The notes under the pieces: model-generated
The model's input: only the letters and a program-made list of their open reading frames with translations
Databases searched by the model: none
What the model was told of the DNA's origin: nothing
NCBI RefSeq assembly: GCF_024502345.1
Contig: NZ_JALDNN010000001.1
Length of the DNA stretch: 64,000 nt
Strand: one strand, 5' to 3'
Source of the DNA: Escherichia coli
GTDB taxonomy: Bacteria > Pseudomonadota > Gammaproteobacteria > Enterobacterales > Enterobacteriaceae
Shown: positions 28,325 through 47,407 of the stretch, piece by piece
Position numbering within the stretch: the first letter of the stretch is position 1
How the letters are laid out: the number at the start of each line of letters is the position of its first letter
Program-made: the position numbers and the translations under genes

Positions 28325-29381
28325 GGCTTTGTTGAATAAATCAGATTTCGGGTAAGTCTCCCCCGTAGCGGGTTGTGTTTTCAGGCAATACGCACGCTTT
28401 CAGGCATACCTGCTTTCGTCATTTTGTTCAGCGCTCGTACCAGGGCCATAGCCTCTGCAACCTGACCATCGTAGTCACGCAGTGTCAGTGAACCCCCGAA
28501 CAGCTGTTTTACCCGGTACATCGCCGTTTCCGCTATCGAGCGACGGTTGTAATCTGTTGTCCATTTCCACCGCGCATTACTCCCGGTCATTCGCTGATTA
28601 GCCACTGCACGGTTACGGTCTGCATATTCACCGGGCCAGTAACCCGCACCTTTTCGGGGAGGGATAAGCGCGCTGATTTTCTTACGCCGCAGTTCATCGT
28701 GACATAGCCGGGTATCGTAAGCGCCATCGGCGGCGGCTGACCTGATTTTCCGGTGGGTTTGCCGGATTAACCCGGGGAAGGCCTCTGAGTCCGTAACGTT
28801 GTTCAGCGACAGGTCAGCGCAGATGATTTCATGTGTTTTACTGTCAACGGCGAGATGCAGCTTACGCCAGATACGGCGGCGTTCCTGGCCATGCTTTTTG
28901 ACTTTCCACTCGCCTTCACCGAAGACCTTCAGCCCGGTGGAATCAATTACCAGGTGTGCGATTTCACCCCGGGTGGGCGTTTTGAAACTGACATTAACCG
29001 ACTTTGCCCGCCTGCTGACACAGCTGTAATCCGGGCAGCGTAGCGGAACGTTCATCAGAGAAAAAATGGAATCAATAAAGCCCTGCGCAGCGCGCAGGGT
29101 CAGCCTGAATACGCGTTTAATGACCAGCACAGTCGTGATGGCAAGGTCAGAATAGCGCTGAGGTCTGCCTCGTGAAGAAGGTGTTGCTGACTCATACCAG
29201 GCCTGAATAGCTTCATCATCCAGCCAGAAAGTTATGGAGCCACGGTTGATGAGGGCTTTATTGTAGGTGGGCCAGTTGGTGATTTTGAACTTTTGCTTTG
29301 CCACGGAACGGTCTGCGTTGTCGGGAAGATACGTGATCTGATCCTTCAACTCAGCAAAAGTTCGATTTATTCAACAAAGCC
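28325..29381 (-). mobile_element. IS903-family element, complete (1057 bp)
   Basis: 18-bp terminal inverted repeats GGCTTTGTTGAATAAATC at both ends; flanking 9-mers differ (GGTCGTTGT vs TGTCCCCAT). Confidence 0.93.
28381..29349 (-). CDS. IS903-family DDE transposase
   Basis: 322 aa track ORF; YREK-type signature (YNRRSIAETAMYRVKQ); true start may be an internal GTG. Confidence 0.9.
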   Translation of the reverse strand: MKDQITYLPDNADRSVAKQKFKITNWPTYNKALINRGSITFWLDDEAIQAWYESATPSSRGRPQRYSDLAITTVLVIKRVFRLTLRAAQGFIDSIFSLMNVPLRCPDYSCVSRRAKSVNVSFKTPTRGEIAHLVIDSTGLKVFGEGEWKVKKHGQERRRIWRKLHLAVDSKTHEIICADLSLNNVTDSEAFPGLIRQTHRKIRSAAADGAYDTRLCHDELRRKKISALIPPRKGAGYWPGEYADRNRAVANQRMTGSNARWKWTTDYNRRSIAETAMYRVKQLFGGSLTLRDYDGQVAEAMALVRALNKMTKAGMPESVRIA

Positions 29382-30062: not shown

Positions 30063-31772
30063 ATGAGTATGTTTCAGATATCAGCTGGAGTGTTCTTTGA
30101 TTTAGATAAAATAGAAAAACACGATGGCGCATTTGTTTTTTATTCAAATGTTGATGTGTCTTTCTCGGTGGAAAACACCTCCCCTCTTTTTAAAGCAAAT
30201 AAAATAAGTCATGATGGTATAAACTGTTATGTGGTAAACTATACTCTCCTGACCGAAAAACCAGAACGAATTGAAGCTGGAGTCGTAGTTAGGGCTGGTG
30301 ATGAGGATTATAGGCAACAATTTATTTTATTATGGGAATTCTATTTTGATTGTGTGGCTAGAGTAGAAAAAGAATCGGTTAAAAAAATATGTGCATTATC
30401 AAATTTTAATAAACATCACTCAAAAATTGCGCTTGAAGTTGCCCCATATTTAGTGGAGATTAACCGAAGAGTTTCATTTGATGATGTCTCTGGGTTTTCT
30501 GCTTTTATTAAAGATGTAGTGAATCTAAATAGATCTGCCTTTAAATCTTTAATGGCAGCGTTAAAAATAATTAGTGATTCAAAAGAATCATTGTCAACCA
30601 ACTTTGACCTGACTTATTCCATGTTAGTCTATGCCTTGGAGTCTTTGTCTCAAAGAAATGATAACTATAAGTCTGATTGGGATGACTACGATCAAAAAAC
30701 CAGAGGTGAATTAGAGTCTGTATTTGAGCATATGCCTGGTGAGGATGTTTGTAAAATTAAATCAATACTTATTGAAGGCAAACAATTCAGATTACAAAAA
30801 AGGTTCAAAGATTTTATACTGAAAAATCTTGAAGAAAATTATTTCAATGAAACAGAGAGATATCCAATCCGCTATAGCTTCCTTAGTAGAGCTTTAGATA
30901 ATTTATACAAAATCAGGTCTTCTTTTGTCCATGAGCTTAAGCCACTTGATGCAATGATCTCGAAAGCCTACAATCCTGTTGGTGATTGTCTGGTTCTTTT
31001 TGGCGAACCTCACTTCAGTTACTCTGGATTGCTTCGACTTCTTCGCCATGTGATAATAAATTTTTGCCGTAAAAACTACAGTCAAAAAAGAGAGTATGTT
31101 AATTGGGTGATGGAAACATCGGGTGTAATGGTTGCAGAGATATCTGCACAATATTGGCTCTGGAATGCAGACGGATTTACAGCTAAAAGTATAGCGAAGT
31201 GGTTTAGTGAATACCTAAATATGTTAAATTTAGGCGAAGTCACTGATTTGCAGTCTATCATGGACAAAATTGAGATAATCTATGACCAATCCAAAAAAGA
31301 ATATAAAAATGGGTTGTTGTATTTTTATTTCTTATATAACTTAATGCATAATGGAAATAAGGGTGAATGGCTTGAGTTTGCGAACAAGCGAAGTTCTATA
31401 CTTGTTTGTGATATATATTGGTATTCATGCTCTCCATATTTATATAAATCATTTACTAATGTTTCAAATGGTATTGCTGATATAAAAACATTGAGAAACT
31501 TTTTGTCTTGTTTTAACGAATATGATAAAAATAAATTTAAGCCAAATCGTTTAAATCTCCCTGCAATGACCGAAGTAATTATGTTGGCTTGCGCAGCAAA
31601 TTCATTCTTCAGAATTGGAATGTATCAAGACTATGTTTTAATGGGCAATAGAGCGATGAGAGAAATTGCTTCAGTAAAAGATGTATTTTATTATATAAAA
31701 GAACGATTAAGTAATTCACAACTTATTGAATTGGACGAGTGCTTGAGATTGTATAGAAAAAAAGGGGGCTAA
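30063..31772 (+). CDS. Hypothetical protein, 569 aa, AT-rich, no family recognised
   Basis: Single long ORF with strong AT bias; GAGT-containing RBS-like sequence before the ATG; bracketed by integrase 3' remnants and inverted IS903 copies. Confidence 0.75.
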   Translation: MSMFQISAGVFFDLDKIEKHDGAFVFYSNVDVSFSVENTSPLFKANKISHDGINCYVVNYTLLTEKPERIEAGVVVRAGDEDYRQQFILLWEFYFDCVARVEKESVKKICALSNFNKHHSKIALEVAPYLVEINRRVSFDDVSGFSAFIKDVVNLNRSAFKSLMAALKIISDSKESLSTNFDLTYSMLVYALESLSQRNDNYKSDWDDYDQKTRGELESVFEHMPGEDVCKIKSILIEGKQFRLQKRFKDFILKNLEENYFNETERYPIRYSFLSRALDNLYKIRSSFVHELKPLDAMISKAYNPVGDCLVLFGEPHFSYSGLLRLLRHVIINFCRKNYSQKREYVNWVMETSGVMVAEISAQYWLWNADGFTAKSIAKWFSEYLNMLNLGEVTDLQSIMDKIEIIYDQSKKEYKNGLLYFYFLYNLMHNGNKGEWLEFANKRSSILVCDIYWYSCSPYLYKSFTNVSNGIADIKTLRNFLSCFNEYDKNKFKPNRLNLPAMTEVIMLACAANSFFRIGMYQDYVLMGNRAMREIASVKDVFYYIKERLSNSQLIELDECLRLYRKKGG

Positions 31773-31932: not shown

Positions 31933-32673
31933 GGCTTTGTTGAATAAATCGAACTTTTGCTGAGTTGAAGGATCAGATCACGTATCTTCCCGACAACGCA
32001 GACCGTTCCGTGGCAAAGCAAAAGTTCAAAATCACCAACTGGCCCACCTACAATAAAGCCCTCATCAACCGTGGCTCCATAACTTTCTGGCTGGATGATG
32101 AAGCTATTCAGGCCTGGTATGAGTCAGCAACACCTTCTTCACGAGGCAGACCTCAGCGCTATTCTGACCTTGCCATCACGACTGTGCTGGTCATTAAACG
32201 CGTATTCAGGCTGACCCTGCGCGCTGCGCAGGGCTTTATTGATTCCATTTTTTCTCTGATGAACGTTCCGCTACGCTGCCCGGATTACAGCTGTGTCAGC
32301 AGGCGGGCAAAGTCGGTTAATGTCAGTTTCAAAACGCCCACCCGGGGTGAAATCGCACACCTGGTAATTGATTCCACCGGGCTGAAGGTCTTCGGTGAAG
32401 GCGAGTGGAAAGTCAAAAAGCATGGCCAGGAACGCCGCCGTATCTGGCGTAAGCTGCATCTCGCCGTTGACAGTAAAACACATGAAATCATCTGCGCTGA
32501 CCTGTCGCTGAACAACGTTACGGACTCAGAGGCCTTCCCCGGGTTAATCCGGCAAACCCACCGGAAAATCAGGTCAGCCGCCGCCGATGGCGCTTACGAT
32601 ACCCGGCTATGTCACGATGAACTGCGGCGTAAGAAAATCAGCGCGCTTATCCCTCCCCGAAAAGGTGCGGGTT
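31933..32673 (+). mobile_element. IS903-family element, truncated second copy (~741 bp), inverted relative to copy 1
   Basis: Starts with GGCTTTGTTGAATAAATCGAACTTTTGCTGAG; identical to copy 1 up to ...AAAGGTGCGGGTT, then diverges into the yfjP-like fragment. Confidence 0.9.
31965..32673 (+). pseudogene. IS903-family transposase, C-terminally truncated
   Basis: First ~236 codons identical to the copy-1 transposase; track ORF continues in unrelated out-of-frame sequence. Confidence 0.8.
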
Positions 32674-33094
32674 GCATCACACCGTTCCAGAACTGCTCGT
32701 CCACCGACAGCGCACGGTCATCAGCTTTGATGACCCACAGCACCAGGTCAAGCTCTGGCAGCATACGCCGGTACAGGGCGCGGTATTCATGGTCCCGTTG
32801 TCCGTTCTCTCCCACGCCCGGTAAATCAACAATCACCAGACTGTGACGACCACTGCGCAGCCGGAAGCGCAGTATGTCGCGGGTGCAGGCGTTCACATCA
32901 CTGACGGCGGAGACTTCCCCCCGAAAGAGTTCGTTACAGAGCGACGACTTACCGGCACCACTCTTGCCCATGATGCCAATCACCGGCTCGTAGTGGGTCA
33001 GATTCTGAATACGTTCAAGAATAAGCTGGCGAAGCGTATCGGGAAGCGACGCCAGCGGTTTTTCCAGGGCCTGAAGGCCATCAGTTTTATTCAT
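32674..33094 (-). pseudogene. yfjP: YfjP/YkfA/YeeP-family GTPase, N-terminal fragment
   Basis: MNKTDGLQALEKPLASLPDTLRQLILERIQNLTHYEPVIGIMGKSGAGKSSLCNELF... (P-loop GKSGAGKS); cut short at the IS903 junction. Confidence 0.75.
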
Positions 33095-33726: not shown

Positions 33727-36540
33727 ATGCCAATGGAGAGCTGTACGCAAATGAACGCCGTAGAAATTGAACAAGCCATCACGGATCTTGCAGAGCAACC
33801 CTTTGATCCTATAGAGTTTCCTTATGCTTTTCTTGAAGCCTTTGGTAACAAGGAAACGACTGTCAAACGCTTGCGCGCCGGTGCATCAAACAAATCCGAC
33901 TTGGGCGGTGTTCTCCAGAGCAATAATATTCACATTCTGACCTGCGAAGCAGGGACTGTGACTCAGATGTTGGCCGCGCTCAAGGCTAGCCCTGCGACAA
34001 CTAAAGCCAAGGCGAAGTTCATCCTGGCTACAGATGGCAAAGATTTCGAAGCTGAAGACCTCGTTAGCGGTCAGACTGTCGCTTGCGCCTTTAAAGACTT
34101 CCCAGATCACTTCGGCTTTTTCTTGCCATTAGCAGGCATTAGCACAGTTCGTCAGATTTGTGAGAACTCCTTTGACATTCGGGCCACTAGCCGGCTGAAT
34201 CGTCTGTATGTCGAGTTGTTGAAAGATAACCCTACCTGGGGGACGGCGGAGCGACGTCATGACATGAACAAATTCATGACTCGGCTGATCTTTTGTTTTT
34301 TCGCTGAGGATACTGACATTTTCGTGGGTAAGGGACGCTTTACTGAAACCGTTGCGCAGATGAGTACAAGAGATTCGTCGAATACGCATGAAGTTATCGC
34401 TACCTTGTTTCGTGCCATGAACACCAGTAACAAAGATAGAGCCGCCGCTGGCATCCCGCGCTGGGCCAATGAGTTTCCTTATGTCAACGGACGCTTGTTC
34501 TCTGGGAGTAATGATGTACCACTGTTCAGTAAGATTGCACGGTCTTATTTGCTCCATGTGGGTAGCCTTGACTGGACCAAGATTAATCCGGATATCTTTG
34601 GCTCGATGATTCAGGCAATTGCCGAAGACGAAGAACGCGGAGAGCTGGGGATGCATTACACCAGCGTACCCAACATCTTAAAAGTTTTGAATCCACTATT
34701 TCTGGACGACCTGCGCGCAAAGCTGGATGAGGCGGGTGACAATCCGCGTATGTTGCTTAACCTGCGTAAGCGCATTTCCCACATCCGTGTGTTCGACCCA
34801 GCGTGCGGTTCTGGTAACTTTTTGGTTATCGCGTACAAGGAAATGCGTGCCATTGAGGCCGAAATCAACAAGCGGCGTAATGAGCCAGATCGCGCCTCGG
34901 ATATCCCACTTACCAACTTTCGCGGGATTGAACTAAGAGATTTCCCGGCAGAGATCGCCCGCCTTGCGCTTGTTATCGCTGAGTACCAATGTGATGTACT
35001 GTACCGTGGGCTGCGGTTGGCCTTGGCTGAGCTTCTTCCGTTACGCAACGAAAATTGGATTACCTGTGGCAATGCACTACGGCTCGACTGGTTAAGAATT
35101 TGCCCGCCGACAGGAACAGGTGTGAAATTACATGGCGATGACTTGTTTGGATCTCCGCTTGATCAGGCAGAGATCGACTTTGAGAATGAAGGCGGAGAGA
35201 CATACATTTGCGGTAACCCACCATACCTTGGTTCAAAGTGGCAGACGGATGAACATAAAGCTGATCTTGGCACAATCTTTTCTGGTCGCGTGAAAAATTG
35301 GAAATCGCTCGATTATGTTGCTGGCTGGTTCCTGAAAGCCGCTGACTATGGTAGCCAGACAAGTTCCCAGGCTGCTTTTGTTGCCACTAATTCAATCAGC
35401 CAAGGGCAGCAAGTGTCGATTCTGTGGCCGGAAATATTCAAGGCAGGACAAGAGATTAGTTTCGCTTACACGAGCTTTAAGTGGTCGAACCTCGCTACTC
35501 ACAACGCCGGGGTCACAGTTGTTATCATCGGAATTTCTAACTGTGTAGGAAAGTCGCGACGCCTCTTTTCGGCTGGAGGAGACAATGGTGCGACGACGTG
35601 TCGTGAGGTGGAGCGCATCAACGCCTATTTGATCGCTGGCCCTAACATCATTGTGGAGGGGGACAGTTGTCCAGCCGACAGTCTTGCAACGATGCAGTTC
35701 GGTAACCACCCGTACTATGGTGCATCACTGATCTTTTCGAGATCTGAAGCACAGCAGATGATGTCTGTCGATCCGCGTACGGCGCGTTTTATTCGCCCAC
35801 TATATGGCTCCCAAGAGTTCATTTCCGCTGTGCCACGAGCCTGTCTATGGATTAACGACGATGAGGCTGACGAAGCGGGGACGATTCCTCTGATAGCTGA
35901 GCGTATGAGCGCCGTAGCAAGTGCTAGACGTGCAAAAAAACAAGACAAGGCAGCCCAGAAACTGGCTAAGACTCCATATCGCTTTCGCGACCAGCAGACA
36001 TCTACGAATCATATTCTTGTGGTTCCTCGAGTCAGTTCAGAGAACCGTCCTTGCTTGCCGGTTGGATTACTTGACTCTGACTCTATCGTTCAAGATCAAG
36101 CATTCGCCCTTTACGACGCTCCTCTCTGGAACCTCGCCATCATAGCGAGTCGCCTGCATCTAGTTTGGATCGCCACGGTTTGTGGAAAGTTAGAGACACG
36201 CTACCGCTATTCAAACACCCTCGGCTGGAATACTTTCCCGCTCCCAACACTCACTGAGAAAAATAAGGCAGACCTCACGCGCTGTGCAGAGGATATTCTT
36301 CTGACTAGGGAGCATCACTTCCCTGCAACCATTGCAGACCTTTATGACCCCGAGAAGATGCCAGACGACCTGCGTATTGTGCACGAGCGTAATGACGAAG
36401 TGCTTGAGCGTATTTACATTGGGCGCCGCTTTAAGAATGACACAGAGCGGCTTGAGAAGCTGTTTGACCTTTATACTAAGATGGCCGCTTCAACTGCATC
36501 GGGCAAAAGCAATAAACGTAAAGTGGGAACCAATGCATGA
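33727..36540 (+). CDS. MmeI/PglX-like gamma-class N6-adenine DNA methyltransferase, 937 aa; no recognisable N-terminal PD-ExK motif
   Basis: Motif X-like HYTS, motif I VFDPACGSGNFLV, motif IV ICGNPPYLG; other blocks (RLIFCFFAEDTDIF, FPYVNGRLF, AFVATNSISQGQQVSILWP, LETRYRYSNTLGWNTFP) resemble the MmeI/PglX family from memory. Start could be Met-9 (33751). Confidence 0.85.
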   Translation: MPMESCTQMNAVEIEQAITDLAEQPFDPIEFPYAFLEAFGNKETTVKRLRAGASNKSDLGGVLQSNNIHILTCEAGTVTQMLAALKASPATTKAKAKFILATDGKDFEAEDLVSGQTVACAFKDFPDHFGFFLPLAGISTVRQICENSFDIRATSRLNRLYVELLKDNPTWGTAERRHDMNKFMTRLIFCFFAEDTDIFVGKGRFTETVAQMSTRDSSNTHEVIATLFRAMNTSNKDRAAAGIPRWANEFPYVNGRLFSGSNDVPLFSKIARSYLLHVGSLDWTKINPDIFGSMIQAIAEDEERGELGMHYTSVPNILKVLNPLFLDDLRAKLDEAGDNPRMLLNLRKRISHIRVFDPACGSGNFLVIAYKEMRAIEAEINKRRNEPDRASDIPLTNFRGIELRDFPAEIARLALVIAEYQCDVLYRGLRLALAELLPLRNENWITCGNALRLDWLRICPPTGTGVKLHGDDLFGSPLDQAEIDFENEGGETYICGNPPYLGSKWQTDEHKADLGTIFSGRVKNWKSLDYVAGWFLKAADYGSQTSSQAAFVATNSISQGQQVSILWPEIFKAGQEISFAYTSFKWSNLATHNAGVTVVIIGISNCVGKSRRLFSAGGDNGATTCREVERINAYLIAGPNIIVEGDSCPADSLATMQFGNHPYYGASLIFSRSEAQQMMSVDPRTARFIRPLYGSQEFISAVPRACLWINDDEADEAGTIPLIAERMSAVASARRAKKQDKAAQKLAKTPYRFRDQQTSTNHILVVPRVSSENRPCLPVGLLDSDSIVQDQAFALYDAPLWNLAIIASRLHLVWIATVCGKLETRYRYSNTLGWNTFPLPTLTEKNKADLTRCAEDILLTREHHFPATIADLYDPEKMPDDLRIVHERNDEVLERIYIGRRFKNDTERLEKLFDLYTKMAASTASGKSNKRKVGTNA

Positions 36541-38582
36541 GCAACAAGATTAGATCTGTACCGTCAGTTTCTGTTACCTACTCACGCAACGGAGCATCGA
36601 CCAAGGCTAATTCTCTTGGGATGCGTCCTATGCAAGAAAGGGCTTATGAGAAGCGCGGAGAACAATATCTTCTCATAAAGTCGCCGCCCGCCTCTGGCAA
36701 GAGTCGTGCGCTGATGTTCGTCGCACTCGATAAACTCGCAAACCAGGGGATCAAACAGGCAATCATTGTCGTGCCGGAAAAATCTATCGGCGCGAGCTTC
36801 AACGATGAACCGCTATCGCAGTTTGGATTCTGGGCTGATTGGCATGTTGAACCTAAGTGGAATCTGTGCAACGCCCCCGGTAACGACAACGGCGGCAAGG
36901 TAAAATCTTTCGGCTCTTTTCTTGAAAGTAGCGACAAGGTGCTTGTTTGTACACACGCAACCTTTCGCTTCGCGGTCGATGCCTACGGTGTAGAGGCGTT
37001 TGACGATCGCCTGATCGCCGTCGATGAATTTCACCATGTGTCCGCTAACCCGGATAACAAGCTTGGTCAGCATCTGGGACAGTTCATTGAGCGTGACAAG
37101 ACGCACATCGTGGCCATGACCGGCTCCTACTTCCGGGGAGATGCGGAAGCCGTTTTGGCTCCTCAGGATGAGTCTAGGTTCGATACCGTCACCTACACCT
37201 ACTACGAACAACTCAACGGTTACGAATACCTCAAACAGCTTGATATCGGATACTTCTTTTATAGTGGATCATACATTGATGACATCCTCAATGTCCTCGA
37301 TCCTGACAAGAAAACGATTATCCATATTCCCAACGTCAATTCGCGCGAGAGTACGAAGGATAAAATTAAGGAGGTGGAGCACATTCTGAGCGAGCTTGGC
37401 GATTGGCAAGGTGCGGATCCTACGACTGGTTTTCAGCTAGTCAAGCGCCCCGATGGCCATGTGTTGCGTATTGCTGACCTGGTGGACCCAGCCAGTCAAG
37501 GCAAGATTCAGGAAAGCCTCCGAGCTCCAGAAATGAAGACAGACCGTGACTATGTAGACATCATTATTGCACTTGGTATGGCGAAGGAAGGTTTCGACTG
37601 GATCTGGTGCGAACATGCGCTGACTGTTGGCTACCGTGCCAGCCTGACTGAGATCGTGCAGATTATCGGTCGCGCTACTCGCGACGCGCCGGGTAAAACC
37701 CGCGCGAGATTTACTAACTTGATCGCCGAGCCCGACGCTGTAGAGGGCGCAGTAACTGAGGCAGTCAACGATACCTTGAAAGCTATCGCGGCGAGCCTGT
37801 TGATGGAACAGGTACTGGCTCCGCGCTTCGAGTTCAAGCCCAAGAATCCTGAAATCGGTCCGACTCCAGGCTTTGATTATGGTGATGGAGGATATGACCC
37901 GGATAGCTGCAATTTTGGTGTTAATGAGCAGACAGGGACGTATCAAATCGAGATTAAGGGACTTGCCGAGCCTAGGAGCAAAGAGGCGGCACGTATCTGC
38001 CAGGAAGATTTAAACGAAGTGATCGCGGCCTTTGTGCAGGATAAGCCCGCCATCGAACGAGGCCTGTTCGATGAAGAGCTGATCCCTGAAGAGTTAACAC
38101 AGGTTCGTATGGGTAAGATCATCAAAGAAAAGTATCCTGAACTTGATGCTGAAGATCAGGAGGCTGTACGTCAGCATGCTATCGCCGCCCTTAACCTCAC
38201 GCAGCAGGCCAAGCGTCTTGCTACCGGTGAAAACGATGGGACGCTCAATACTGCTCTTATTGACGGAGTGCGTCGCTTTGCAATGGATGTGCGCGATTTA
38301 GACATAGACCTTATCGACCGCATCAATCCCTTTGGTGAAGCCTACGCTATCCTTGCTAAGACGATGAGTGAAGACAGTTTGAAGCAGGTCGCGGCGGCCA
38401 TCTCGGCCAAGCGTACTTCGATCACGCCTGAAGATGCCAAGGTGATCGCCAAGCGTGCCGCTGAATTCAAACGTGAACGTGGGCGCCTCCCATCGTTAAC
38501 TTCGCTGGATGCTTGGGAAAAACACCTTGCTGAAGGTGCAGCCGCGTTTATGCGTTTTAGGGCGGAGGGACGTTATGAGTAA
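36537..38582 (+). CDS. SF2 DExH-box helicase (ResIII-like), 681 aa, with ~270 aa C-terminal region of unknown function
   Basis: Motif I PPASGKS, motif II AVDEFHHV, motif III MTGS, motif VI QIIGRATRD; ATG overlaps the methyltransferase stop (ATGA). Confidence 0.85.
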   Translation: MSNKIRSVPSVSVTYSRNGASTKANSLGMRPMQERAYEKRGEQYLLIKSPPASGKSRALMFVALDKLANQGIKQAIIVVPEKSIGASFNDEPLSQFGFWADWHVEPKWNLCNAPGNDNGGKVKSFGSFLESSDKVLVCTHATFRFAVDAYGVEAFDDRLIAVDEFHHVSANPDNKLGQHLGQFIERDKTHIVAMTGSYFRGDAEAVLAPQDESRFDTVTYTYYEQLNGYEYLKQLDIGYFFYSGSYIDDILNVLDPDKKTIIHIPNVNSRESTKDKIKEVEHILSELGDWQGADPTTGFQLVKRPDGHVLRIADLVDPASQGKIQESLRAPEMKTDRDYVDIIIALGMAKEGFDWIWCEHALTVGYRASLTEIVQIIGRATRDAPGKTRARFTNLIAEPDAVEGAVTEAVNDTLKAIAASLLMEQVLAPRFEFKPKNPEIGPTPGFDYGDGGYDPDSCNFGVNEQTGTYQIEIKGLAEPRSKEAARICQEDLNEVIAAFVQDKPAIERGLFDEELIPEELTQVRMGKIIKEKYPELDAEDQEAVRQHAIAALNLTQQAKRLATGENDGTLNTALIDGVRRFAMDVRDLDIDLIDRINPFGEAYAILAKTMSEDSLKQVAAAISAKRTSITPEDAKVIAKRAAEFKRERGRLPSLTSLDAWEKHLAEGAAAFMRFRAEGRYE

Positions 38583-39753
38583 TTCTGATTTAGACGATTT
38601 GGCGGCAGAACTTGCTGAATTTGCACCACCGGAGAAGAAAAAAGGACGTCCAGCCAGCGAGGAACGCATCATCGCAGGTTTTGAGGAAATCCAGCGCTTC
38701 GCTGACCAACATGGACGTGCGCCGCAACACGGCGAAGAGCGTGAGATCTTTGAGCGCCTCTATGCAGTGCGGCTCGACCGGCTACGCAGTCTCCCAGACT
38801 GCCGTGCCTTGCTAGAGCCGCTGGATCATCAAGGCTTATTGGCTGGAGGGGGTGATGTAGCGGAGTCAGCGGACGAAATTATCGATATCGATAATTTGGC
38901 TGCCGAACTGACGGATGTTTCCAGCGAGGATGATATCACAGTCTTGCGTCATGTTCGTGCTAGCGCCGAAAAGCGTGCTGTACAAGGGATCGCGGATCGC
39001 AAGCCGTGCGAGGATTTTGATACATTCAAACCGCTATTTGAACAGGTGCGCAGTGATCTAAGTTCAGGGTTAAGAGTGACCCGACCTTTTGGACAGTATG
39101 CAACGATTGAAGTGGGCCATTGGTTCATCCTGGATGGTCAAACGGCTTATGTGGCTGAGGAAGGTGAAGAGTTCGATTCTCCACAGGGGAAGAAAGATGC
39201 TCGGCTGCGTGTCATTTATTCGAATGGTACAGAAAGTAACCTGCTTCGGCTGTCATTAGTTCGTGCTTTGTATAAAGACGAAACAGCACGTCGAATTACC
39301 GATCCAGACATGGGGCCTTTATTCAGCGATGCTCTAGAAGAGAGCGATCTAGAAAGTGGCACCATTTATGTATTGCGTTCGCTATCAGATAACCCTTATG
39401 TGGCCGAACATCGTGATGTTATTCACAAGATTGGTGTGACTGGCGGCAAGGTCGAGACTCGTATTGCTAATGCTGAACACGATTCCACCTATCTGTTGGC
39501 GAAGGTAGAGGTGGTCGCTTCATACAAACTCGCAGGTATCAACCGCACCCGGATGGAAAACCTGTTTCACAGGTTGTTTGCACCCGCAAGGCTTAACATT
39601 ACCATTAACGACCGTTTCGGCCATCCAGTACAGCCCGAGGAATGGTTTCTCGTTCCGTTATTCGTTATCGATGAGGCTGTTGCACGTATTAAGGATGGTA
39701 GCATCATTGGGTATGTTTATGACCCCATGTCTGCGAAACTGGTGAAGGCATAG
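38575..39753 (+). CDS. GIY-YIG-like / T5orf172-like domain protein, ~392 aa (tentative domain call)
   Basis: GGAGG RBS then ATG at 38575 overlapping helicase stop (ATGAGTAA); C-terminal region GTIYVLRS...YVAEHRDVIHKIGVTGGKVETRIAN resembles GIY...YIG-R; acidic N-terminus. Confidence 0.65.
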   Translation: MSNSDLDDLAAELAEFAPPEKKKGRPASEERIIAGFEEIQRFADQHGRAPQHGEEREIFERLYAVRLDRLRSLPDCRALLEPLDHQGLLAGGGDVAESADEIIDIDNLAAELTDVSSEDDITVLRHVRASAEKRAVQGIADRKPCEDFDTFKPLFEQVRSDLSSGLRVTRPFGQYATIEVGHWFILDGQTAYVAEEGEEFDSPQGKKDARLRVIYSNGTESNLLRLSLVRALYKDETARRITDPDMGPLFSDALEESDLESGTIYVLRSLSDNPYVAEHRDVIHKIGVTGGKVETRIANAEHDSTYLLAKVEVVASYKLAGINRTRMENLFHRLFAPARLNITINDRFGHPVQPEEWFLVPLFVIDEAVARIKDGSIIGYVYDPMSAKLVKA

Positions 39754-39868: not shown

Positions 39869-40660
39869 ATGAATAGTAACCTGACCAAGATATGTTACCG
39901 TGGTGAGACTGGTGAAAGTGATCTAAGAACGTTGATACTTGGTGAGATTCTATATATCTCACTACGAGATGTTTTAATCACGCTGAATAAAGAAAATAGA
40001 GAAATCAACGCTGATTACACAGTAAAATCGATGGCTGGAATAATCAGGGCGCAATTACAGGCTCTTGACCCTGATGAGTATATTACTACAGATGCTGAAA
40101 ATGGTGTTTTTGAAGGTCAGAAAGAGATCTTCGTCACCCAGCCAGGTTTGTATCGAGTCATGTCAAGTGACCGAAGCGCTGCCGGTAAGCGCTTTCAAAA
40201 ATGGTTATTTCATGAAGTCATACCATCATTGACTAAGCATGGTGTATACCCGCCTCCGCCAGAAGCGAAAGGTTCAGCCCTTGCACAAATGGCTGAGATA
40301 CTTGCTCAAAATTCGCGAGCACTTGCTGACGCAATCCATAAACACGAAAAACTGGCCGAAGATGTCTCACAGGTTAAAGGTAAAGTTGCCAACGTTGAAA
40401 GCCGTCTGGAACTGTTAGAATCAGGTCCTTCCACTGTAACTGAAGATATGCATACTCTTGATAGCCGTCTCGCTTATTTGGACATGAGCATGGAAGAAAA
40501 GCATACCACCGAGACATTAGCCTGGTGCGAGAATATTTCTGTTCAAAATAACAGGAAGGTGATTCGCAAGGACTGTAGGGAGAATTCGCTCTTTACAACG
40601 CAGACTATCGACGAAGCAATCGCTATCATGACTGAAAGTGGAAAAATCACACCAAATTGA
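39869..40660 (+). CDS. Bro-N domain protein (phage antirepressor-like), 263 aa
   Basis: ...GLYRVMSSDRSAAGKRFQKWLFHEVIPSLTKHG matches the Bro-N/Ant hallmark (F..W...EV.PSI); coiled-coil-like C-terminal half. Confidence 0.7.
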   Translation: MNSNLTKICYRGETGESDLRTLILGEILYISLRDVLITLNKENREINADYTVKSMAGIIRAQLQALDPDEYITTDAENGVFEGQKEIFVTQPGLYRVMSSDRSAAGKRFQKWLFHEVIPSLTKHGVYPPPPEAKGSALAQMAEILAQNSRALADAIHKHEKLAEDVSQVKGKVANVESRLELLESGPSTVTEDMHTLDSRLAYLDMSMEEKHTTETLAWCENISVQNNRKVIRKDCRENSLFTTQTIDEAIAIMTESGKITPN

Positions 40661-45620: not shown

Positions 45621-46862
45621 TCAAACAACAAGTTTTAATGCACCGGCACTAGATTCTACCATGCTTCCTTTATCTGCTCTTTTAACAAAATCAGCCCACC
45701 ATTGCATCATCGGCCTACGTTGCTCAAGATAATCACTGCGGTTATAAGCGCGACGTACCTCATTTTTGTCTACATGAGCAAGTGCGGCTTCAATGACATC
45801 AGGAGGAAATCCTTGCTCATTGAGGGCTGTACTGGCGATAGAACGCAAACCATGTGAAACCAGCACTCCCCCTAAACCGGCACGCTTGAGTGCAGCATTC
45901 ACGGTTTGACTGTTCATCGGCTGAGTGGGCTTAATGCGGCTTGGAAAAATAAAATCTCGGCCACCACTGAGCGGCTTCATCATTTCCAGAATAGCCAGAG
46001 CCCCATCAGATAATGGAACGGTATGGTCCCGGTTCATTTTCATTCGGGCTGCTGGAATTTTCCATTCGTTAGCATCAAAATCGATCTCATTCCACCGAGC
46101 TTCTGCGGCTTCTGCGGGGCGGGTGATGGTGAGAAGTTGCCACATGAACAGACACCGCGTAGACAGGCTGATACTGGCCGTACGCATAGTTTGCATCAAC
46201 TGAGGCAACTGATCCGGACGAATACTGGGCATGTTCTTTTTCTGAGGTTTCTCGAAGGCTTTGCCAATATTAACACTGGGAACTGCATCAATCAGGCCCG
46301 TGTTTTGGGCATAAATCATGACTTCATTGATCCGTTGGCAAAGACGGCGGACAGTTTCCAGTGCTCCTCGGGCCTGAACGGGTTGAACGGCTTGAACCAG
46401 TGTATGGGCTTTAATATCTGTAACGCTTACGTTGCCAATTGCGGGAAATATATCTCTTTCAAGCGAACGCCAGATATCATCAGCATAGTCCTCGGTTACA
46501 CTGGCTTTCTTCACATTCCACCAACGCTCGGCAACTAACAAGAAAGTGTTGGTTTTGGCCTCCTGAGAATTTCTTATCTGTTCTTTTTGGTATTCCTGAG
46601 GATCGATTCCTTTTGCCAGTAATACTTTGGATTCAGCTCTGAGCTTACGAGCATCGGAAAGCGAGACAGCAGGATAGGAACCGAAGCTCTGTTTAGTTCG
46701 CTGTTTTGTCAGAGGTCGGTAATAACGGAATTGCCAGAGCTTACTGCCACTGGATTTGATTAGCAGCGTCAGTCCGTCACCATCATACAACTGATAATCG
46801 GCATCTTTAGATTTGGCTGCTTTGATTTCCGTATCCGTTAACGGCTTGGTTTTTCTTGCCAC
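45621..46862 (-). CDS. intA: P4/CP4-57-type tyrosine integrase (IntA-like)
   Basis: 413 aa: MARKTKPLTDTEIKAAKSKDADYQLYDGDGLTLLIKSSGSKLWQFRYY...; C-terminal catalytic region HGLRSIASTA...AHVDKNEVRRAYNRSDY; adjacent to ssrA 3' end. Confidence 0.93.
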   Translation of the reverse strand: MARKTKPLTDTEIKAAKSKDADYQLYDGDGLTLLIKSSGSKLWQFRYYRPLTKQRTKQSFGSYPAVSLSDARKLRAESKVLLAKGIDPQEYQKEQIRNSQEAKTNTFLLVAERWWNVKKASVTEDYADDIWRSLERDIFPAIGNVSVTDIKAHTLVQAVQPVQARGALETVRRLCQRINEVMIYAQNTGLIDAVPSVNIGKAFEKPQKKNMPSIRPDQLPQLMQTMRTASISLSTRCLFMWQLLTITRPAEAAEARWNEIDFDANEWKIPAARMKMNRDHTVPLSDGALAILEMMKPLSGGRDFIFPSRIKPTQPMNSQTVNAALKRAGLGGVLVSHGLRSIASTALNEQGFPPDVIEAALAHVDKNEVRRAYNRSDYLEQRRPMMQWWADFVKRADKGSMVESSAGALKLVV

Positions 46863-47044: not shown

Positions 47045-47407
47045 TGGTGGAGCTGGCGGGAGTTGAACCCGCGTCCGAAATTCCTACATCCTCGGTACTA
47101 CATGCTTAGTCAGTCTTTACATTCGCTTGCCAGCTGCGGACGGACACGCCACTAACAAACTAGCCTGATTAAGTTTTAACGCTTCAACCCCAGGCAGGGC
47201 TTCCACGCGATCTCTTTTGGGTTTGACCTCTCTTGATCCCCGTCCTAAGAGCGGAGGCTAGGGAGAGAGGGCTCTAAGCAGGTTATTAAGCTGCTAAAGC
47301 GTAGTTTTCGTCGTTTGCGACTATTTTTTGCGGCTTTTTACGAGGCCAACCGCCCCTCGGCATGCACCTTGGGTTTCGCAAATCCCGTCGAATCCAGAAT
47401 CAGCCCC
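47045..47407 (-). ncRNA. ssrA: tmRNA (SsrA), 363 nt
   Basis: Reverse complement begins GGGGCTGATTCTGGATTCGACGGG and ends GGTTCAACTCCCGCCAGCTCCACCA; terminator-like hairpin follows at ~46975-47015. Confidence 0.97.

Follow-up and report, generated by a model that had tools for sequence, protein, structure and literature searches.

Homologues of MmeI that lack its PD-ExK nuclease, such as Bacillus subtilis YeeA, have been set apart as a group of their own, "invariably" flanked by genes for a DEAD helicase (YeeB) and a GIY-YIG protein (YeeC), and the three proteins were speculated to form a type I-like enzyme with single-strand modification (Morgan et al. 2009, PMC2731913). Fernandez et al. (2023) introduced the name DnmA for YeeA and found the synteny confirmed; the B. 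subtilis dnmA-yeeB-yeeC locus gave no protection against three phages and had no effect on transformation (PMC9973331). In Vibrio crassostreae, yeeAB leads to resistance to one phage group (Piel et al., bioRxiv 10.1101/2021.05.05.442762). The three-gene arrangement, a likely defence role included, is already in the literature. Herein, we describe an operon of this kind from Escherichia coli (assembly GCF_024502345.1, contig NZ_JALDNN010000001.1), lying in a 64,000-nt stretch that we refer to as the window and comprising three genes on the same (+) strand for a methyltransferase, a helicase and a nuclease. Our main subject is the long C-terminal tail of the helicase. Since the system and its likely defence role have been published, the advance is a modest one; what is new is a terminal module of the tail that resembles the pseudomurein-binding repeat (PMBR), its counterpart in the nuclease, the loss of the module in B. 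subtilis, and a cargo slot in related operons. The architecture is widespread. It is wrongly labelled by annotation tools, which see in it a type IIG enzyme encoded by a single gene. To our knowledge, it has never been dissected biochemically.

The gene at 36537-38582 is assigned as a YeeB orthologue, the motor of an operon kind already described. The identity of its product to YeeB is 48% for the B. subtilis protein (residues 11-628) and 43% for that of V. crassostreae (residues 11-677). The YeeB and YeeC reference sequences were taken from Fig. S5 of PMC9973331, with a few optical character recognition errors in YeeB; B. subtilis YeeB was also recovered among the database proteins as P0277/P0283. 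Helicase motifs I (GKS, residues 54-56), II (DEFHH, 163-167), III (MTGS, 194-197) and VI (QIIGRATRD, 375-383) are invariant across the family, and the Pfam DEAD/ResIII match covers residues 28-196. No significant match was found when the helicase sequence and the family profile were searched against all PDB sequences. PADLOC and NCBIfam gave marginal matches to PbeA and dnd_restrict_1 over motifs V-VI, and no named defence-system model covers the helicase.

The partner genes agree with this assignment. The methyltransferase is predicted to be an MmeI-family (type IIL/IIG-like) N6-adenine enzyme with a fused recognition domain: it matches the PADLOC model REase_MTase_IIG (PDLC03598) with an E value of 3.9e-284 and the MmeI structure 5hr4 with an E value of 4.2e-138, FDPACGSGNF and NPPY motifs are visible in its translation, and comparison of alleles places a variable recognition domain at residues ~600-800. 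The alignment to 5hr4 begins at query residue 88 and MmeI residue 108, leaving the N-terminal ~87 amino acids (aa) unaligned; this non-alignment, together with a reading of the sequence, suggests that the enzyme has no N-terminal PD-ExK endonuclease. The nuclease matches Pfam MUG113 (7.5e-13) and T5orf172 (1.2e-10) over residues 262-372, is named "GIY-YIG nuclease family protein" by the NCBI annotation pipeline PGAP, and in blastp is 34% identical to B. subtilis YeeC (E 3e-52) and 32% identical to V. crassostreae YeeC (E 1e-48). Catalytic motifs are intact in all three proteins, and the genes follow one another co-directionally in the order of DnmA/YeeA, YeeB and YeeC.

This order is found far beyond E. 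coli. A search with one genome per species returned at least 573 relatives, the best 80 of which provide the identity and taxon figures given here. They belong to Gamma-, Beta- and Alphaproteobacteria, Cyanobacteria, Verrucomicrobia, Planctomycetota and others, and in every related locus with enough flanking sequence, from at least four phyla, the methyltransferase, helicase and nuclease genes succeed one another. The helicase is the most conserved member, at 74-90% identity; the corresponding ranges are 61-76% (methyltransferase) and 52-78% (nuclease). Among 5,426 complete E. coli genomes the operon is present in 98, and 75 of these fall in the 90-95% identity band.

A preceding sequence-only reading of the window had placed the helicase open reading frame (ORF) between two gene overlaps, ATGA upstream and ATGAGTAA downstream, and had proposed translational coupling with both neighbours. 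The ORF and both overlaps hold, and RefSeq/PGAP gives the three coding sequences identical starts in a locus of E. coli strain KCJ3K291 that matches at 100%. Co-expression through such coupling is plausible. Between helicase and nuclease it is conserved in evolution: an overlap of the two genes is seen in all 78 of the 78 related loci, with the identical 8-nt geometry in 66 and with the nuclease Shine-Dalgarno sequence kept as GGAGGG or GAGGGG within the last helicase codons. The methyltransferase-helicase junction is variable, with the ATGA geometry in ~13 of 76 relatives and one or more other genes inserted in ~48. A 4-nt ATGA overlap alone is the commonest junction type of bacterial operons. 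Scans for internal promoters and terminators of the operon stayed at chance level, a search of the operon region against Rfam gave zero matches, and the opposite strand yielded nothing; no result speaks against a single transcript.

Two start sites have alternatives. The methyltransferase could begin at an ATG at 33727, 8 codons 5' of the RefSeq start at 33751. The nuclease frame is open for 22 codons 5' of the annotated ATG (38509-38574), with extra ATGs at 38509 and 38550; the start at 38575 is favoured because of the conserved Shine-Dalgarno sequence and 8-nt overlap.

In the ~48 of 76 loci mentioned above, the junction between methyltransferase and helicase acts as a cargo slot of 0.4-2.8 kb, holding same-strand genes of more than 20 unrelated families. 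Known or candidate defence genes are among them, encoding SoFic (E 4e-111), the RhuM-like PDC-S05 (2e-148), PDC-S11 (3e-116) and a DUF262/HEC-05-like protein; examples among the related loci, numbered L002-L081, are L045:1095-2237, L024:4971-5978, L055:4936-5976 and L022:3511-5223. The slot is empty in the window (36537-36540), and the helicase-nuclease junction is never interrupted by cargo. Type I hsd operons likewise host inserted genes.

Next, we considered the part of the helicase that follows motif VI. The sequence-only reading had described an acidic, helix-rich tail of ~270 residues with no recognised motif. Acidity and helical content stand, with a net charge of -16; the length is actually ~298 aa (residues 384-681), and the statement about motifs is nearly right, except that the last ~30-50 residues match Pfam PMBR (PF09373). 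An AlphaFold model of the tail, built on a 74-sequence alignment, has a mean predicted local distance difference test score (pLDDT) of 81 and a predicted template modelling score (pTM) of 0.69, and consists of a long helix, a small three-stranded sheet and helical bundles; the full-length helicase model has a pLDDT of 76.8 and a pTM of 0.70. We divide the tail into four segments (Table 1). Segment 1 is its most conserved part, with 69% identity to the 8 most distant members of the family. Segment 2 reaches only 36% against distant members and carries indels. Segment 3 contains a variable stretch (557-583) and, within residues 584-625, a highly conserved LDIDLIDxINPF block (LDIDLIDRINPF…AYxILAK, residues 588-608). 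Segment 4 holds the PMBR match.

The tail is a fixed component of these proteins and was seen in no other family. When it was searched alone against 1.84 billion representative proteins, 834 relatives were obtained at E<=0.001, and the full-length matches listed were all helicases of ~680-720 aa. It was present in all full-length family members seen, with B. subtilis YeeB lacking the terminal module only. Its mean identity is 76%, versus 80% for the motor. Between two E. coli variants, tail, core and terminal module have ratios of nonsynonymous to synonymous substitution rates (dN/dS) of 0.040, 0.046 and 0.048, respectively; these values come from the E. coli pair only, the comparison with distant loci being invalid (ungapped, out of register and with saturated dS). 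The whole helicase, tail included, is under strong purifying selection. A fold search with the tail found no PDB match, and the only matches in AFDB were the same helicases; neither a nuclease fold nor any other known fold was found in this structure search. As judged from these comparisons, the tail is a family-wide, conserved and non-catalytic part of the helicase. One outcome that the sequence-only reading had counted against itself, a C-terminal region that is a standard helicase accessory domain with no link to defence, holds by half: the region is standard in being family-wide, but the helicase family itself is tied to defence. No functional characterisation of the tail appears in the papers found.

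The terminal module has a counterpart in the neighbouring nuclease. The PMBR match has an E value of 0.019 in the full helicase and of 5.1e-4 (20.4 bits) when the window segment is searched in isolation; with isolated segments, 41 of 60 family members match at E<=0.001, the best at 4.5e-8. Pseudomurein is absent from the hosts and the protein resides in the cytoplasm, so that the named function of PMBR is inapplicable here. The match would be a motif-level resemblance, as the unit occurs in a single copy and in a different biological context. PMBR and HNH_repeat (PF18780) share with the module short helix-turn units and a G-[RK]-x-P turn, and usually occur as tandem repeats; the difference is that here there is one unit per protein, split across two genes. 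The nuclease N-terminus itself shows weak HNH_repeat and PMBR matches. An hhalign comparison of two profiles, one built on helicase residues 616-681 and the other on nuclease residues 1-95, gave a probability of 89.3% and an E value of 2.1e-6, and paired helicase 626-673 with nuclease 22-72; a first comparison with narrow alignments had given 51%, which rose to 89% with more diverse alignments. Both modules have the pattern φxxFxxxxGRxP, followed after 5-7 residues by [DE]xxExxφA. Reciprocal searches with hidden Markov models (HMMs) matched only these two segments, and the helicase-profile HMM scored 8-12 bits, versus at most 2 bits on reversed sequences and the methyltransferase. In the methyltransferase the best scores for the terminal module were 2.0 and 5.2 bits, that is, background. 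Helicase residues 626-673 and nuclease residues 22-72 are thus probably homologous, as paralogous modules encoded ~25 codons apart across the gene overlap.

B. subtilis YeeB lacks this module. The protein (P0277/P0283, 598-599 aa) ends …FIWPKV, while all relatives at 65-91% identity are ~640 aa long (e.g., P0284, 91% identical) and continue EEFFQTKGRRPDPKSDDPIERRMGEAV…; its shortfall of ~41-55 aa relative to the E. coli helicase and close relatives is exactly the terminal GRxP module (window 38460-38579). The module is kept in the phage-active Vibrio YeeB and in the E. coli helicase, and is missing in B. subtilis YeeB, whose locus was reported inactive.

From these results, we favour a reading in which the helicase is the YeeB-type motor of a three-subunit restriction-modification-like defence operon, with the tail as the assembly scaffold of a type I-like translocating complex; we regard the scaffold role, which we infer, as rather likely. 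The helicase has no nuclease or DNA-specificity domain of its own, and an interaction module, one of the options of the sequence-only reading, is the best remaining reading of the tail. Defence is supported in a relative, as V. crassostreae yeeAB confers resistance to one phage group. The process would run as follows. The MmeI-like methyltransferase would recognise an asymmetric site and methylate one strand of host DNA. At unmethylated foreign sites it would recruit or activate YeeB, which would use ATP to translocate on double-stranded DNA (dsDNA), like the type I HsdR and type ISP motors, and bring the GIY-YIG nuclease YeeC into action; YeeC would then cut. The conserved helical bundles of the tail would dock the methyltransferase, pack on the motor, or both, while the terminal module would pair with its paralogue at the nuclease N-terminus or share a binding site with it. 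The two modules, lying across the gene overlap, would resemble two units of a split tandem repeat, and conserved translational coupling would help helicase and nuclease to arise together in matched amounts.

Several points weigh against this reading. In the nuclease-profile direction the HMM search reached only 9.3 bits, against a background of 5.2 bits set by the methyltransferase, and the homology of the modules rests on 48 columns with 15% identity. The correlation between module loss and inactivity in B. subtilis is a single case; the same study also notes gaps in YeeC and used three phages only (PMC9973331). The acidity of the tail fits protein docking, but would equally fit autoinhibition or DNA mimicry.

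In the main rival, the tail would regulate the motor intramolecularly or assist it in handling DNA: as an autoinhibitory lid or acidic DNA mimic that is released once the target is recognised, or as a clamp or pin for processivity. Many superfamily 2 (SF2) motors carry accessory domains of the regulator or clamp kind. Here, the acidic charge together with the basic terminal module (+3) would suit such a role, the first 45 tail residues, the most conserved, probably pack on RecA2, and the pTM of the full-length model points to a defined placement of the tail against the core. However, this explanation accounts neither for the likeness of the terminal module to the nuclease N-terminus nor for the strict coupling of helicase and nuclease, and no similarity was found to ratchet, winged-helix, OB or HsdR helical domains. 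We hold it to be unlikely, although it competes best with the scaffold.

Decay of the locus is improbable. On this account only the methyltransferase matters, as an orphan epigenetic regulator, a role suggested for B. subtilis DnmA; the nuclease and the helicase with its tail are passengers without function. The inactivity of the B. subtilis locus in phage and transformation assays (PMC9973331) and the position of the E. coli locus among insertion sequence (IS) elements could be cited for it. A relic would not be expected, however, to keep a dN/dS of ~0.04 across the helicase and intact catalytic motifs throughout, nor would its three genes stay together in all related loci with enough flank, or their coupling geometry be conserved. 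The E. coli helicase also retains the full-length C-terminal module that B. subtilis has lost, and Vibrio homologues restrict phage.

The sequence-only reading had also suggested that the tail might be a DNA sequence-specificity or target-recognition module, an idea open to a large region with no assigned function. To examine alleles, we set the window against E. coli O157:H16 Santai (H6; L082:3025-5811), one of the matches listed at ~91% identity. The methyltransferases share ~98% identity as far as about residue 500 and fall to 34-54% at residues 600-800 (window 35550-36150), while the helicases are 97% identical (tail 96-100% per 50-aa window), as are the nucleases (97%). Because the tail does not follow this swap of the recognition domain, it is not a specificity module. 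Across phyla, moreover, it is 70-88% identical where methyltransferases reach only 61-76%, and MmeI-family enzymes have their own recognition domain (PMC2731913). We give the specificity module very little credence. E. coli has at least two operon alleles, which differ almost only in the recognition domain of the methyltransferase; this pattern suggests a specificity swap by recombination.

Least probable of all, to the point of being negligible, is a cryptic nuclease in which the D…E-I-K string that the sequence-only reading had tentatively noted (DPDSCNFGVNEQTGTYQIEIK, residues 454-474, nt 37896-37958) forms a PD-(D/E)xK site and the helicase itself cuts DNA like type III Res or type I HsdR: the nuclease of type III Res also lies C-terminal to the motor and E-I-K falls on a predicted beta strand (468-474), as for catalytic ExK motifs, but the string sits in the most variable, indel-rich part of a tail with no nuclease fold, D454, E472 and K474 are not conserved, IEIK is replaced by VEIG, VEMG, VRVG, IHVK or VHVA in family members, and distant members, as well as the Vibrio and Bacillus proteins, have lost the D-containing loop.

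Returning to the scaffold, one specific form of it is possible, though we put it forward tentatively and with more doubt than confidence. YeeB, with its last ~50 residues, and YeeC, with its first ~70, may each supply one half of a split tandem repeat of PMBR/HNH_repeat-like helix-GRxP-helix units; the halves would pair with each other or compete for one site on the degenerate N-terminal domain of the methyltransferase, and their pairing might be the switch that tethers the nuclease to the motor. If true, loss of the YeeB half would explain the inert B. subtilis system, and the operon would represent a new modular route from an MmeI-type methyltransferase to an ATP-dependent restriction enzyme. 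In any case, a tail that is family-wide, strongly selected, mirrored by its last module at the nuclease and missing that module in a homologue reported inactive offers a narrower way into the question of how methyltransferase, motor and nuclease couple.

Table 1. Features of the operon and its surroundings, in window positions.
Feature	Position	Strand	Basis or remark
Methyltransferase gene (DnmA/YeeA homologue)	33751..36540	+	PGAP start 33751
ATGA start/stop overlap, methyltransferase/helicase	36537..36540	+	Helicase ATG and TGA stop of the upstream 937/929-aa ORF
YeeB-family SF2 DEAD/DEAH helicase, 681 aa	36537..38582	+	ORF call, Pfam, YeeB identity
Motor core, residues 28-383, two RecA-like domains	36618..37685	+	Motifs I, II, III, VI
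Tail segment 1, residues 384-428, long helix (…VNDTLKAIAASLLMEQVLAP)	37686..37820	+	Helix 405-427 in both models
Tail segment 2, residues 429-478, small beta sheet and variable loop	37821..37970	+	Strands 430-435, 460-463, 468-474
Tail segment 3, residues 479-625, helical bundles and variable low-confidence linker 557-583	37971..38411	+	
Tail segment 4, residues 626-681, helix-GRxP-helix module (…AKRAAEFKRERGRLPSLTSLDAWEKHLAEG…)	38412..38579	+	PMBR-like; net charge +3
GGAGGG Shine-Dalgarno sequence of nuclease gene	38564..38569	+	Inside last helicase codons (A-E-G)
ATGAGTAA, 8-nt overlap, helicase/nuclease	38575..38582	+	Nuclease ATG and helicase TAA
YeeC-family GIY-YIG (T5orf172/MUG113) nuclease, 392 aa	38575..39753	+	Pfam, blastp versus YeeC
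Nuclease N-terminal module, residues 22-72 (…IIAGFEEIQRFADQHGRAPQHGEEREIFERLYAVRL…)	38638..38790	+	hhalign; highly conserved
BRO-N domain gene	39869-40660	+	
P4-type integrase	45621-46862	-	
tmRNA gene ssrA	47045-47407	-	Tag ANDENYALAA

The operon is carried on an integrase-bearing island that adjoins the tmRNA gene ssrA. Its neighbours in the window are IS3 and IS5 copies, with the BRO-N gene and yagK/L/M-like genes downstream. In strain KCJ3K291 the identical operon has other downstream neighbours (IS30, IS3 and a group II intron), and in strain Santai an IS26–aac(6')-Ib-cr–blaOXA-1–catB3 module lies directly 3' of the nuclease gene (L082:9093-12024), so that the island also gathers resistance genes. 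A 569-aa ORF at 30063-31772 (+) has a GC content of 33-34%, versus ~50% around it, and lies between ORFs for IS5-family transposases at 28381-29349 (-) and 31965-32846 (+). NCBIfam gives no match for this 569-aa ORF and PADLOC a weak one, to ApeA (E 7e-6); it may be another mobile defence gene.

Membership of several defence systems was rejected. Models of the BREX and DISARM proteins PglX and DrmMI matched weakly or partially, and NCBIfam BREX models gave 21-26 bits against cut-offs of 400-900. For BREX, DISARM, Hma and MADS alike, matches were weak and no partner genes were found, the flanks holding IS transposases, BRO-N, yagK/L/M and the integrase. Assignment as type I restriction-modification was rejected too: the motor has no N-terminal PD-(D/E)xK nuclease domain as in HsdR, the sole methyltransferase, which is MmeI-like, has its recognition domain fused to it, and the operon contains no hsdS-like ORF. 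The helicase is not a type III Res, having no PD-(D/E)xK nuclease C-terminal to its motifs (D…ExK is unconserved), nor is the methyltransferase a single-chain MmeI-type IIL/IIG enzyme, as its N-terminal ~87 aa do not align to MmeI.

Compared with type I systems, the E. coli operon has neither HsdS nor HsdM and encodes a separate GIY-YIG nuclease, and no resemblance in fold could be detected between the YeeB tail and the C-terminal domains of HsdR. Type III Res shares with YeeB an SF2 motor with a functional region after motif VI and a separate, specificity-bearing methyltransferase; that region is a PD-(D/E)xK nuclease in Res, which the YeeB tail does not have. The type ISP enzymes LlaGI and LlaBIII combine the set of activities predicted here, namely a nuclease, an SF2 dsDNA translocase, an adenine methyltransferase and a recognition domain, and act at asymmetric sites (PMC3553950); they do so in one polypeptide with an Mrr-type nuclease, whereas the E. 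coli system uses three polypeptides and a GIY-YIG nuclease. MmeI (PDB 5hr4) is homologous to the methyltransferase over the methyltransferase domain, the helical spacer and the recognition domain, with recognition and methylation in a single polypeptide, and one-strand modification at an asymmetric site is probable here as well (PMC2731913). Unlike MmeI, which cuts without ATP at a fixed distance by means of its own N-terminal PD-ExK domain, the E. coli system presumably delegates cutting to an ATP-driven motor and a GIY-YIG nuclease. The closest relatives are the DnmA/YeeA–YeeB–YeeC systems of B. subtilis and V. crassostreae, which have the same three proteins in the same order (YeeB 43-48% identical, tail included; YeeC 32-34%). 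From both of these the E. coli operon, known here from sequence, differs in lying on an ssrA-adjacent integrase island with no cargo gene, and from the B. subtilis system it differs in a helicase that keeps the terminal module.

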